From Bdellovibrio sp. (GTDB taxonomy: Bacteria > Bdellovibrionota > Bdellovibrionia > Bdellovibrionales > Bdellovibrionaceae), in contig JAKFCY010000003.1 of the NCBI GenBank assembly GCA_036676395.1, positions 352,001-416,000 of the forward strand: DNA of 64,000 nt, written 5' to 3'. The notes under the pieces were generated by a model. That model saw only the letters and a list, made by a program, of their open reading frames with translations. It did not search any database and was not told where the DNA came from. Numbering within the stretch: the stretch's first letter is position 1; every line of letters begins with the position of its first letter. Made by a program: the position numbers and the translations under genes. Of the stretch, positions 1 to 3,226 are shown piece by piece.

Positions 1-2
1 TT

Positions 3-500
3 ACCTTACCTGATTATAAAAAAGAGATTTATCTATATGACGGTGAAATTCGTGACACTTTAAGTACGCACGTAGCTGCCGATCACGGAGCTGATCTAAT
101 TATCGCCTCATATTCGATGCAACCTTATCACTACGCCGAAGAAATGGGTTCATTACATAAATACGGAATCCCGGCGATTGTGAACCAGGCTTTATATCAA
201 GTGCTTGAACAAAAAGTTGCTCGTGGTATTCAGTATCAGAATCAAAAAAAGAATCTTTACGGCGAACTAAAAAAAATCTGTGTGAGCGAAGGCTTGTCGT
301 CTGAGATCACCAAAAAAATATTAACTGCCGTTGAAAAAACAACCAGCTTTCAACCCAATGTCGACTACGTCTACATCAAGCCACGCCCACAAGATTACGA
401 AATGTTTTTTGCCGACCATTTCTCGCTAAACCCAGCAATTTTAGAAAAGATTCTCTGGATTGGCTTTAAATCGGGATTAAGCACTTTACGTCATCTGTAA
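3..500 (+). CDS. Patatin-like phospholipase family protein, C-terminal part (5' truncated by window edge)
   Basis: The frame is open from base 3: TLPDYKKEIYLYDGEIRDTLSTHVAADHGADLIIAS... This resembles the patatin 'Y.DGG...........GAD.II.V' segment (DGE variant), and the tail VYIKP also fits. Confidence 0.6.
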   Translation, partial: TLPDYKKEIYLYDGEIRDTLSTHVAADHGADLIIASYSMQPYHYAEEMGSLHKYGIPAIVNQALYQVLEQKVARGIQYQNQKKNLYGELKKICVSEGLSSEITKKILTAVEKTTSFQPNVDYVYIKPRPQDYEMFFADHFSLNPAILEKILWIGFKSGLSTLRHL

Positions 501-540
501 ATAGTCTGATCAATCAAAGCCTCTAAAACCTAGCTCTGTT

Positions 541-556
541 TGGAGCCAATATCGCA
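541..556 (+). promoter_or_regulatory. Possible sigma-54 (-24/-12) promoter upstream of the Fic gene
   Basis: TGGAGCCAATATCGCA has GG-N10-GC spacing as in the TGGCACG-N4-TTGCW consensus, about 55 nt before the ATG. Confidence 0.35.
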
Positions 557-610
557 ATATAAACCTCTTAAGAAATTGTCGCGTGTCTGCGACACGACTT
601 GGGAGTTTAT

Positions 611-1762
611 ATGAAAAATTTCACTCTATTTTTTGTCTCATTTTGGATCGGTCTTTCGGCCTATGCAGACTGCGATAGTTTTCTTCAATTACCCCAAGAA
701 GATGCGCGCAAAGCCAGTCTTTATAAGCGGGATTGCGATATCCAAGGTCGCTATCAAAAATTACAAGCTTCTTTTAATTCTGAAGGCATCAACGTCGCAG
801 AACTTGCTGAATATCGCTTGTTACGCTTTGTCGACCGCGGCAGTTATGAAACCGCTAAAAAAACTGAATTGCCACCTTCACAAATTTATAAACCGGCTCC
901 AACCACATGGGAGGTCTGGGATTCCGGAATCAGGGCTCTTTTTGCTGATGATACTCAAGTAGCCGCTTTGCTTTTTAGATCGGGTGGTTTTAACTCAACT
1001 GAAAAAGGTTACGAAAATTTAAACTTCGCCATAATCAACGGGGCTTTATTAAAAAATAATCGTGGCGATATCAGCCGCGATTATTTATCGGGAATAAATC
1101 GTCGCACATCAAAACCTGGAACTTACCGCCAAGCTGGAGATACACAAGTTGGTTGGACCGCAGCGATTCCTGACTGCAAAGACAAAGTGACTTGCGCACA
1201 AAATTCTATGCTTAAAGCCCAACAAAACTGGGAAGTTGAATACGGAATGAACTTTAGTGAAGTCGTCAAAGAATGGAATGGCCAAAAACCAAATGCTGCA
1301 ACACTTACCGTGCCGATGACTGTTACTGCGAGTGATGCAGGAAAATTTTATGTAGCCTATGCGCCAAGCGATATGGTTGCCGCGCAAATTTCATGGTTAG
1401 ATATTTTTATTAAAGCAACGATTGAACGCTATCGCGCGAATAAACCACTTATGCCGCCGATTGAATTTTCTGCCCTCGTGCAAAAGTGGTTAGTTACAAT
1501 TCACCCATTTTCTGATGGCAACGGCAGAACTTCGCGTGCAGTTCAGGATTTTATCTTAGCTACGTTTAAAATGCCCTATGCGCCGGGCGGTGATTTGCAA
1601 AACGATACTTTAGAAGACTTCGATAAATACGTAGATCTTACTTATGATCGTATGGAAAATATGGTTTTGAAACTTGAGGCTTGTGCAGAAGAATACCGCC
1701 AAAAACAAAAACCGTCCTACGGCTGTAGAACGGTTAAAAGTATGGAAACTATAACTAATTAA
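611..1762 (+). CDS. Fic-domain protein with N-terminal signal peptide
   Basis: Canonical Fic motif HPFSDGNGRTSR (1502-1537). Sec-type signal MKNFTLFFVSFWIGLSAYA-D. GGGAG RBS before ATG 611. Confidence 0.85.
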   Translation: MKNFTLFFVSFWIGLSAYADCDSFLQLPQEDARKASLYKRDCDIQGRYQKLQASFNSEGINVAELAEYRLLRFVDRGSYETAKKTELPPSQIYKPAPTTWEVWDSGIRALFADDTQVAALLFRSGGFNSTEKGYENLNFAIINGALLKNNRGDISRDYLSGINRRTSKPGTYRQAGDTQVGWTAAIPDCKDKVTCAQNSMLKAQQNWEVEYGMNFSEVVKEWNGQKPNAATLTVPMTVTASDAGKFYVAYAPSDMVAAQISWLDIFIKATIERYRANKPLMPPIEFSALVQKWLVTIHPFSDGNGRTSRAVQDFILATFKMPYAPGGDLQNDTLEDFDKYVDLTYDRMENMVLKLEACAEEYRQKQKPSYGCRTVKSMETITN

Positions 1763-1765
1763 AAA

Positions 1766-3226
1766 CTAACCTAAGCTTTTTTCAACAAGATCAAATAATG
1801 GACCCGAGAATAAGCCGATCGCGATAATTATAAATGCACAGACAAACACTAAAACTGTTGTCGCATGTAAAGAATGATCTGCAACATCTGCATCGCCGTC
1901 TTTCATGTACATAACAACGATTGGGCGTAAGTAGTAATAAACACTGATGACAGAGTTAATTACACCCCATAAAGCTAACCACACTAACCCTTCGTTTACA
2001 GCAGCGCTAAATAAATAGAACTTACCAAAAAATCCCAATGTTGGCGGAAGACCCGCAAGTGATAACATAAAAATCGTTAAGCACATGGCTAATGCCGGCT
2101 GGTTTTTCGCAAAACCTGCTAAGTCATCAGTATTGATTACCGAATTTTCAGAGCGTTCGATAAGGCTTACAATTGCAAAAGCACCCATCGTCATAATGCT
2201 GTAAGCAAATAGATAGAACAACACGCTTGATGCGCTATACGCTGAATTCTGACTGATGCCCGCCGTAATTAAACCAACTAAGATATAACCAGAATGAGCT
2301 ACTGAAGAATAAGCTAAAGTGCGTTTCAAATTATTTTGCATAATCGCCGCTACATTACCCACCGTCATGGTGATTACGGCTAGCCATTGCATAACATCAA
2401 ATAAATTTTGCGAACCTACTAATGGTTGCGTTGCGATTATACGTAAGAACGCCGCAAATGAAACTGCTTTTACTGCTGTCGCCATAAAAGAAGTTACTGG
2501 CGTAGGAGATCCCTGATAAACATCTGGAGCCCAGGCATGAAACGGAGCAATTGAAACCTTAAAACAAAAACCCAAGATCACAAAAACGATACCAAATAAG
2601 AATAATTTATTTGTTTTTACCAGTGTCGCGGCACTTTGCATGAAATCAGTAATATTTACTGATCCAGAACTTCCGAACACGAAAGATACTCCATATAAGA
2701 AAATCGCCGATGCAAAAGAGCCCAATACGAAATACTTAATTGCAGCTTCTTTTGAAATTTTTTGTTCGTGCGACATCGCAATCATTAAGTATAGGGCTAA
2801 TGACATTAACTCTAAACCGATAAACACCGTAATCAAATTCACAGCGGCAACCAAGATAATCATTCCCAGCACTGAATTTAGTGCTAAGAAAATTAATTCA
2901 GAAAACTGTTTACCGCGTGTCGATGGGTTTTCGTACATCATAATTAAACCGCCGGCCGAAGCCACGATCGCAAGTAATGCTGACCACTGAGTTAAGCCAT
3001 CAAATAATAATTGATTATTAAATGCCGTTCTATCAGAGCCACCAAATACTAATAATAAGCCTGCAGTTAAACCCAGGCCGATTAAAGCAATAACGATTGT
3101 AGCTGCGGGGTTTTGCTCTTTATTGCCACGCAAAACTTTAATCGCAAGCGGGATTAAGCTGAACAAAAACAAAACAATCAGCGGAGAGGCTAATAAAACA
3201 TCTGTAAGACCAACTGTAATATTCAT
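1766..3226 (-). CDS. nuoN: NADH-quinone oxidoreductase subunit N
   Basis: Antiporter-like membrane protein with EAAIKYF, FKVSIAPFHAWAPDVYQG and LAYSSVAH motifs; last gene of the nuo cluster. Confidence 0.95.
   Translation of the reverse strand: MNITVGLTDVLLASPLIVLFLFSLIPLAIKVLRGNKEQNPAATIVIALIGLGLTAGLLLVFGGSDRTAFNNQLLFDGLTQWSALLAIVASAGGLIMMYENPSTRGKQFSELIFLALNSVLGMIILVAAVNLITVFIGLELMSLALYLMIAMSHEQKISKEAAIKYFVLGSFASAIFLYGVSFVFGSSGSVNITDFMQSAATLVKTNKLFLFGIVFVILGFCFKVSIAPFHAWAPDVYQGSPTPVTSFMATAVKAVSFAAFLRIIATQPLVGSQNLFDVMQWLAVITMTVGNVAAIMQNNLKRTLAYSSVAHSGYILVGLITAGISQNSAYSASSVLFYLFAYSIMTMGAFAIVSLIERSENSVINTDDLAGFAKNQPALAMCLTIFMLSLAGLPPTLGFFGKFYLFSAAVNEGLVWLALWGVINSVISVYYYLRPIVVMYMKDGDADVADHSLHATTVLVFVCAFIIIAIGLFSGPLFDLVEKSLG

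Follow-up and report, generated by a model that had tools for sequence, protein, structure and literature searches.

A Predicted Sec-Exported Fic Enzyme of Bdellovibrio with an Intact Adenylylation Motif and No Conserved Canonical Inhibitory Motif

Introduction

Where would an AMPylase that has left the cytoplasm obtain its nucleotide? The question is raised by a gene for a Fic protein in a 64,000-nucleotide stretch of a Bdellovibrio sp. genome (GenBank assembly GCA_036676395.1, contig JAKFCY010000003.1, positions 352,001 to 416,000), referred to here as the window. Fic enzymes have so far been studied as cytosolic toxins, as injected virulence factors, or as FICD, an enzyme of the endoplasmic reticulum (ER); the family from Bdellovibrionota to which the window protein belongs fits none of these settings. 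Its members are predicted to be exported by the Sec pathway and, to our knowledge, the bacterial periplasm is without adenosine triphosphate (ATP).

An earlier note on this DNA had proposed a prey-directed effector, or possibly a de-AMPylase, carrying the inhibitory helix (alpha-inh) of class II Fic proteins. The sequence features that it listed are all present, and its interpretation is partly supported: an exported Fic protein with an intact motif, likely disulfides, a sigma-54-type promoter, and no antitoxin stands, and a class II alpha-inh does not. At somewhat less than even odds (roughly 0.45), and arguing from sequence, we read the protein as a secreted, constitutively competent nucleoside monophosphate (NMP) transferase that would lie idle in the periplasm of its producer until it reached the cytoplasm of prey or met nucleotides released from them. 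If prey supply the nucleotide, bacterial predators would have in these proteins their first effectors that act by post-translational modification, and self-immunity would be conferred by compartment. If the enzyme instead works in the periplasm, an unrecognized nucleotide or diphosphate donor would be implied there. A full-text literature search returned no paper linking Bdellovibrio with Fic proteins or describing Sec-exported bacterial Fic enzymes; the sole paper containing both "Bdellovibrio" and "Fic domain" has Bdellovibrio in its reference list only.

Fic Fold and Active Site

The earlier note had described a complete Fic active site, including the second Arg, and comparison with relatives bears this out: none of the 72 aligned close homologs departs from H, D, G, N, G, R, and R at the signature positions, and each of these residues is kept in at least 185 of the 187 sequences of a wider family. 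The Pfam search that it had proposed returned a Fic domain match above the family cut-off (Table 1). NCBIfam models matched below threshold only, the best being XopAC, whose match to residues 240-327 (E = 2.9e-9) scored 36 bits where the cut-off is 450. Sequence matches in the Protein Data Bank (PDB), namely FICD and BT_2513, were confined to the region around the active-site helices, where FICD was the best match (E = 5.9e-10 with the family profile).

An AlphaFold 2 model built on the 72 homologs reached a predicted local distance difference test score of 92.6 and a predicted template modeling (TM) score of 0.91. Foldseek found no match in the PDB at E <= 1e-3, its best being FICD (E = 2.5e-3, TM 0.33), and VIA-align, run against 48,161 chains, was needed to reveal the fold. 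The first 23 chains were all Fic-fold, with Z scores from 15.0 down to 5.3, after which unrelated rows followed at Z <= 3. BT_2513 ranked at the top (Z 15.0, root-mean-square deviation 4.0, 231 residues aligned), and the longest structural alignment was to AnkX (Z 14.9, deviation 4.1, 247 residues). FICD (Z 14.3, deviation 4.2, 223 residues) was accompanied by the Fic protein of M. marinum (14.3), SoFic (12.8), AvrB (12.6), IbpA Fic2 (12.2), and CdFic (10.6).

A strict HxFx(D/E)GNGRxxR motif is reported to accompany adenylylation, with deviating motifs accompanying other activities (PMC3667792). Judged by signature and model, the window protein is a Fic-fold enzyme with an intact adenylylation-type motif and a predicted NMP-transfer activity. 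It belongs to the Fic superfamily and is filed under none of the three classes. The small adjacent antitoxin gene that supplies alpha-inh in class I (FicTA toxin-antitoxin systems) is absent, as are the conserved (S/T)xxxE(G/N) motif N-terminal to the core that marks class II and the motif after the core that marks class III. A reading as a defense system was rejected, as PADLOC matches were at the level of the core only (SoFic, PDC-S04) and the protein is exported.

The model places beta-strands at residues 181-184, 237-240, and 246-249, and these can be mapped onto the canonical beta-hairpin flap in two incompatible ways. The helical excursion between the first and the last of these strands is listed in Table 1 as a possible flap-region insert. 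One subclade has Cys at position 183 (26 carriers) and at 243/244 (23 carriers), with both in 23 sequences, and this co-occurrence argues that the two ends of the segment at residues ~185-243 touch.

Export Signal and Cysteines

The N-terminus of the protein, MKNFTLFFVSFWIGLSAYA followed by DC, presents Lys2, a 15-residue hydrophobic core, and the A-Y-A tripeptide, and 76 relatives begin at the same Met-Lys. Signal peptides were called with a rule-based script that looked for a positive n-region, a hydrophobic h-region, and small residues at -3 and -1. The first conserved Cys could be aligned in 71 of the 72 close homologs, the exception being an N-terminally truncated sequence. By these rules, all 71 possess a signal peptidase I-type site that immediately precedes that Cys or lies one residue farther ahead, in agreement with the cleavable Sec signal peptide (AYA-D) claimed at the outset. 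The clade of the window protein has an extra Asp or Glu between A-x-A and Cys, and the resulting Asp at -1 excludes a lipobox in the window protein itself. Within the wide family, a hydrophobic segment lies just before the first Cys in 170 of the 182 sequences with that Cys aligned; the remaining sequences are mostly truncated gene calls or show a lipobox followed by a linker.

Six Cys residues are present, at positions 21, 42, 189, 195, 358, and 372. The earlier note had seen three close pairs, suggestive of disulfides. Disulfides are likely for the N- and C-terminal pairs, which are conserved throughout the family (Table 1), whereas C189/C195 is lineage-specific, occurring in only 6 of the 72 homologs and always together. 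The number of Cys is even in 65 of the 72 sequences (four in 36 and six in 29), and the genome carries DsbA-type genes. Export of the Fic protein is well supported by these patterns, and cleavage after A19 and disulfide formation are likely.

A hydrophobic N-terminus might also anchor a lipoprotein, or it might be no signal peptide at all and belong to a cytoplasmic, toxin-antitoxin-type Fic protein. The Cys directly after the hydrophobic segment would suit a lipoprotein, a loose PROSITE lipobox can be fitted in 18 of the 71 homologs, and in a few members of the wide family a clear lipobox precedes a linker. The strict lipobox, however, fits only 2 of the 71, against A-x-A-type cleavage in all of them. 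The even Cys count befits an exported protein, and the antitoxin gene that a cytoplasmic toxin would call for is lacking. With the Asp before the Cys of the window protein itself, these points leave the lipoprotein or cytoplasmic toxin as the least credible account we considered.

Inhibitory Motif and Auto-inhibition

SFNSEG, the hexapeptide that the earlier note had taken for a class II alpha-inh, is a literal match to (S/T)xxxE(G/N) and does lie N-terminal to the Fic core. The assignment nevertheless failed on comparison. The window protein is the sole carrier of the motif in this column among the 72, only five have Glu there, and a homolog 93% identical to the window protein reads YFSSEG. 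Neither does the motif exceed 7 of the 72 in any other alignment column, or 2 of the 72 in the C-terminal columns. As a contrast set, we used 54 class II Fic proteins of 300-470 amino acids with an upstream motif, drawn from 63 Fic-signature open reading frames (ORFs) at the more distant loci L020-L083. These carry [ST]xxIE[GN] 126-141 residues before the catalytic His, and the corresponding distance for SFNSEG is 240. The model has residues 54-57 at the end of a long helix (32-57), whose range appears to match the linker helix of FICD and not alpha-inh. SFNSEG is best regarded as a chance match, and a class II auto-inhibited enzyme that places Glu58 in the ATP site, possibly as a de-AMPylase, is very improbable.

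Several alignments bear on where a counterpart of alpha-inh might lie. A profile-profile match of the N-terminal region (residues 21-250) to the class II alpha-inh region was not significant (E = 0.62), and global and local hhalign runs aligned S..IEG of the class II proteins with residues ~160-164, at a confidence close to zero. A sub-threshold HMMER alignment sets TVAIEG of FICD opposite residues 145-150. The structural alignments, by their end points, favor residues ~62-97, in disagreement with the sequence-based alignments. As these do not fix a position, we limit our claim, which is drawn from the aligned family, to the statement that no conserved canonical motif exists. Conserved acidic residues are found in the helices that these end points would place at the alpha-inh position, namely E67 (71/72), D75 (70/72), and E80; in the wide family, Asp and Glu together reach 122-129 of 187.

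The second Arg is reported to be the residue at which the inhibitory Glu and the gamma-phosphate compete (PMC3667792). Because the motif is not conserved, the family would be without canonical auto-inhibition. De-AMPylation by FICD is reported to depend on the inhibitory glutamate (PMC6408439), and so the absence of a conserved alpha-inh Glu weakens the de-AMPylase alternative.

Family Distribution and Divergence

A word-indexed search returned 76 relatives. Five carry organism names, all from Bdellovibrionota: two proteins of Bdellovibrio sp. qaytius, one of Pseudobdellovibrio sp., and two from metagenome-assembled genome records labeled "Bdellovibrionota bacterium". Searching one genome per GTDB species yielded 16 full-length loci, again all in Bdellovibrionota, and the next matches cover the Fic core only. 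Pseudobdellovibrio sp. HCB154 and Bdellovibrio sp. qaytius, both complete genome records and apparently isolates, carry orthologs. At the level of the genus, carriers of the family are said to be epibiotic predators. An exhaustive profile search among 50%-identity representatives recovered 3339 proteins at E <= 1e-3, of which 114 reached E <= 1e-30, and more than 100 wide-family clusters at 50% identity combine a signal peptide with the Cys pattern. Names are attached to three proteins of this wider set, only Bdellovibrio sp., Pseudobdellovibrio sp., and Bdellovibrionaceae, and the nearest ESM Atlas cluster is most often from Bdellovibrionota. We consider the restriction to this phylum provisional. 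Across the sampled genomes of the phylum, 23 of 401 have a match at E <= 1e-15. Several further family matches in related genomes (G156, G301, G361, and G090) contain one in-frame stop (TAA or TGA) and are possibly decaying copies.

The genome of the window (3.4 Mb, 99.3% complete) encodes three paralogs, which are ~40% identical to one another and are its only PF02661 matches. Each of the other two (L002 2539-3693 and L003 331-1410, contig C2) adjoins an uncharacterized protein with a signal-like N-terminus, one of 384 residues downstream and one of 359 residues upstream, 3 nt apart. Pfam and PADLOC yielded no family for either partner protein. Other genomes keep the pairing, at 73-85% identity in L010 and L011 and 37-41% in L009, L013, and L015.

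The Fic gene evolves much faster than its neighbors. Between five orthologous loci (L004-L008) and window positions 1-3226, the adjacent patatin-like gene is 90-94% identical and the antiporter-type subunit gene on the other side 93-96% over 47-50 residues, whereas the Fic protein between them is only 56-78% identical. Fusions occur among 15 long members of the wide family: two have a C-terminal NAD:arginine ADP-ribosyltransferase domain (23-25 bits; cut-off 22.3), two have HEAT repeats, and one shows a sub-threshold PDZ match. The four proteins with ADP-ribosyltransferase or HEAT fusions are P0157, P0198, P0162, and P0173.

Promoter

The sigma-54-like GG-N10-GC site that the earlier note had seen upstream of the gene gains weight from comparison. 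TGGAGC-N5-TCGCA is invariant in all six orthologous upstream regions, with the remaining intergenic sequence diverging around it, and rpoN is present in the genome, where TTGGAGC-N5-TCGCA has a single exact copy. The more relaxed TGG-N8-TNGC lies within 400 nt upstream of all three paralog transcription units here and of 11 of 15 family loci in other genomes, where the background rate is 0.13 sites per 400 nt. For the 11 of 15, the binomial P is ~1.6e-7, a value that exaggerates the significance, as related loci do not count as independent. In the other two paralog transcription units, TGG-N8-TCGC stands 48-54 nt before the first ATG. Within the window, a loose sigma-54 pattern is not enriched (6 found, 7.08 expected), and support for the site therefore comes from its conservation and not from a pattern count. 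The textbook form of the -12 element is TTGCA; here, it reads TCGCA. No sigma-70-like site was found at positions 400-610. Transcription probably starts from the sigma-54 promoter, to judge from these sequences, and would therefore depend on an enhancer-binding activator. A search of the literature for sigma-54 in Bdellovibrio turned up nothing specific.

Comparison with Known Fic Enzymes

FICD/HYPE (PDB 4u04, 6i7g), which matched best in sequence at the active-site helices, also resembles the window protein in being a Fic enzyme of an exported, oxidizing compartment behind an N-terminal hydrophobic segment, as described in PMC4342408. The two differ in that FICD has an uncleaved membrane anchor, tetratricopeptide repeat motifs, and, within TVAIEG, Glu234, which serves both inhibition and de-AMPylation, whereas the window family has a predicted cleavable signal peptide, no such repeats, and no conserved alpha-inh motif. 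The ER imports ATP, and we know of no ATP import into the bacterial periplasm.

By analogy, the window protein may work most like VopS and IbpA, secreted effectors described as being without alpha-inh (PMC4342408). These two and XopAC/AvrAC share with it the canonical motif and the absence of an inhibitory helix, and IbpA Fic2 is among its structural matches. They differ in having eukaryotic GTPase or kinase targets and dedicated injection or secretion systems (type III or two-partner secretion for VopS and IbpA). The window protein, in contrast, combines an ordinary Sec signal with likely conserved disulfides; its N-terminal region is a different one, and its source is a bacterium that preys on other bacteria. 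A precedent for a Fic effector passed from bacterium to bacterium is CccR of Yersinia pseudotuberculosis, which is reported to be secreted by a type VI secretion system and to AMPylate FtsZ of neighboring bacteria (PMC9755527). In the kingdom of its presumed targets, the window protein is like CccR. We set it beside the window protein by description only; it differs in its secretion route, in its entry via FhuA, and in its DNA-binding domain, as given in the same source.

AnkX, the phosphocholine transferase of Legionella pneumophila that gave the longest structural alignment, is set apart by ankyrin repeats, delivery through a type IV secretion system, and cytidine diphosphate (CDP)-choline as donor. 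Its signature deviates from the canonical Fic motif, whereas the window protein has the strict adenylylation signature. The class II bacterial enzymes SoFic, CdFic, and BT_2513 share with the window protein the overall fold of Fic proteins, N-terminal helices included (Z 12.8, 10.6, and 15.0, respectively), and a single-gene organization. They differ in the upstream motif, which the 54 class II relatives carry and the window family lacks.

Mode of Action

Our preferred reading, from the cleavage site and disulfides through release beyond the periplasm to NMP transfer and the prey target, is what we infer from sequence. A sigma-54 promoter would place transcription of the Fic gene under an enhancer-binding activator. 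The signal peptide would be removed after A19, and C21-C42 and C358-C372 would become oxidized once out of the cytoplasm. As long as the enzyme stayed in the periplasm of the predator itself, want of a nucleoside triphosphate (NTP) would keep it inactive. Once released onto or into prey, it would meet NTP and modify prey proteins, placing AMP or a different NMP on their hydroxyl side chains. Compartment would thus provide the self-protection that an antitoxin or an inhibitory Glu gives to other Fic toxins. The idea of a prey-directed effector draws indirect support from three observations made on sequence data, namely that all named members are from Bdellovibrionota, that the gene diverges fast, and that relatives carry ADP-ribosyltransferase fusions.

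Several points weigh against this reading. Only eight organism names are available among the proteins (5 of 76, and 3 further). The distribution is patchy: the close family (E < 1e-130) is found only in the genus of the window, in 5 of 13 other genomes, and in none of 26 genomes of a neighboring genus, which argues that this is not a core predation gene and is dispensable for predation as such. No dedicated delivery system is linked to the gene, and the genome has a GspG-like pseudopilin, with no L component of a type II secretion system found. The disulfides would be reduced in the prey cytoplasm. In the close family, E67, D75, or E80 of the modeled helices may supply a non-canonical brake.

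A wider version would see in the family a Bdellovibrionota-specific arsenal of Sec-exported, brake-free Fic AMPylators, compartment-protected and under sigma-54 control. As the predator's periplasm would hold neither NTP nor nicotinamide adenine dinucleotide (NAD), these enzymes would be switched on only in the prey cytoplasm or by prey nucleotides leaking into the predator-prey junction. Nucleotide availability would then itself trigger the predator's post-translational attack. We put this forward tentatively, and with more doubt than confidence.

The predicted Sec signal and the likely disulfides would place the protein at least in the periplasm. This would suit a resident enzyme of the periplasm or envelope that modifies the predator's own exported proteins, for instance as a switch fired by nucleotides from breached prey. 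Such an enzyme would also fit the lack of a dedicated delivery system linked to the gene; sigma-54 control fits a regulated physiological function, and the conserved exported proteins beside two of the paralogs could be its substrates or partners. Fast divergence relative to neighboring genes and a distribution that is patchy even within the genus are harder to square with it, the ADP-ribosyltransferase fusions of relatives look more like weaponry than housekeeping, and the periplasm is, as far as we know, without ATP. On balance, we think a resident enzyme unlikely, though it deserves to be taken seriously.

The ATP problem would vanish if the donor were not an NTP at all, and the protein were an exported Fic-fold transferase active in the periplasm on another diphosphate, either a CDP-alcohol, as in AnkX, or an envelope lipid-linked diphosphate. 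Besides the long structural alignment to AnkX (247 residues, Z 14.9), the ~60-residue excursion between two strands falls in the same general region as the helical/beta insert of ~70 residues reported for the conserved beta-hairpin of AnkX (PMC7228754), and FicD is reported to bind isoprenoid diphosphates (PMC12974487; PDB 9yz5). Those compounds are reported as inhibitors, however, and not as substrates, and the excursion has no single mapping onto the flap. The strict adenylylation signature, in which none of the 72 homologs lacks either Gly or the second Arg, also speaks against a different donor, given that deviating activities are reported to go with deviating motifs (PMC3667792). We therefore judge a non-NTP donor distinctly improbable, and the class II and the lipoprotein or cytoplasmic toxin accounts, discussed above with the motif and the signal peptide, more improbable still. 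None of these displaces the secreted, prey-directed NMP transferase as our preferred reading.

Gene Neighborhood and Minor Features

Table 1. Features of the Fic locus, with positions counted from the first nucleotide of the window.
Feature	Position	Strand	Basis and details
Sigma-54-type promoter-like site TGGAGC-N5-TCGCA	541..556 (GG 542-543, GC 554-555)	+	TGGAGCCAATATCGCA; GG-N10-GC spacing; conservation
23-nt palindromic insertion in 5' leader (TTGTCGCG...CGACACGAC core)	574..596	+	This genome only; absent from 5 orthologous loci
Ribosome-binding site GGGAG	601..605	+	5 nt before ATG; read from sequence; G/A/G invariant in ortholog alignment
Coding sequence of predicted exported Fic protein	611..1762	+	ATG 611, stop 1760-1762, 383 amino acids + stop; ORF list, translation
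Predicted Sec signal peptide, residues 1-19, cleavage after A-Y-A and before D	611..667	+	Rule-based: K2, hydrophobic core, small residues at -3/-1
N-terminal Cys pair C21...C42	671..736	+	C21 71/72 and C42 72/72 in close family; 182/187 each in wide family
SFNSEG, literal match to (S/T)xxxE(G/N)	770..787, residues 54-59	+	Motif in this column 1/72, Glu 5/72
Helical excursion, possible flap-region insert	1163..1339, residues ~185-243	+	Between beta-strands 181-184 and 246-249 of model; holds C189/C195
Pfam Fic domain match PF02661	1340..1558, residues 244-316	+	E 8.9e-9, 36.5 bits; cut-off 24
Fic signature HPFSDGNGRTSR	1502..1537, residues 298-309 (H298, D302, N304, R306, R309)	+	Translation, homolog alignment
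C-terminal Cys pair C358...C372	1682..1726	+	72/72 each in close family; 185/187 each in wide family

The upstream neighbor is a gene for a 398-residue patatin-like phospholipase (PF01734) on the same strand, which ends at position 500 (window 3-500; L001 194-1390). The N-terminus of its product, by reading alone, has no signal-peptide-like segment. Between it and the Fic start lies a gap of 110 nt containing the sigma-54-like site. Downstream are three convergent genes for membrane subunits of complex-I/Mrp antiporter type (PF00361). The stop codons of the Fic gene and of the first of these (1766-1768) are 3 nt apart. The absence of an adjacent antitoxin gene, another claim of the earlier note, was confirmed: no antitoxin-sized ORF lies beside the Fic gene, there is no ORF of at least 50 codons between it and either neighbor, and these neighbors leave no room for one. 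At 0.40-0.43, the gene has the same GC content as the DNA around it, which gives no sign of recent transfer.

A TTG at position 599 lies directly 5' of the ribosome-binding site and overlaps it by one base. The leader at 566-625, which includes the 23-nt insertion, folds at -14.9 kcal/mol (z -2.36), with its outer stem pairing to part of GGGAG. The insertion has a near-copy with three mismatches elsewhere in the genome (G000:C2:1456489) and also scores as a minus-strand terminator-like site. A second minus-strand terminator-like hairpin (1735-1710; 11 pairs, T-rich tail) lies within the 3' coding end of the Fic gene, where it overlaps the codon of the invariant C372.

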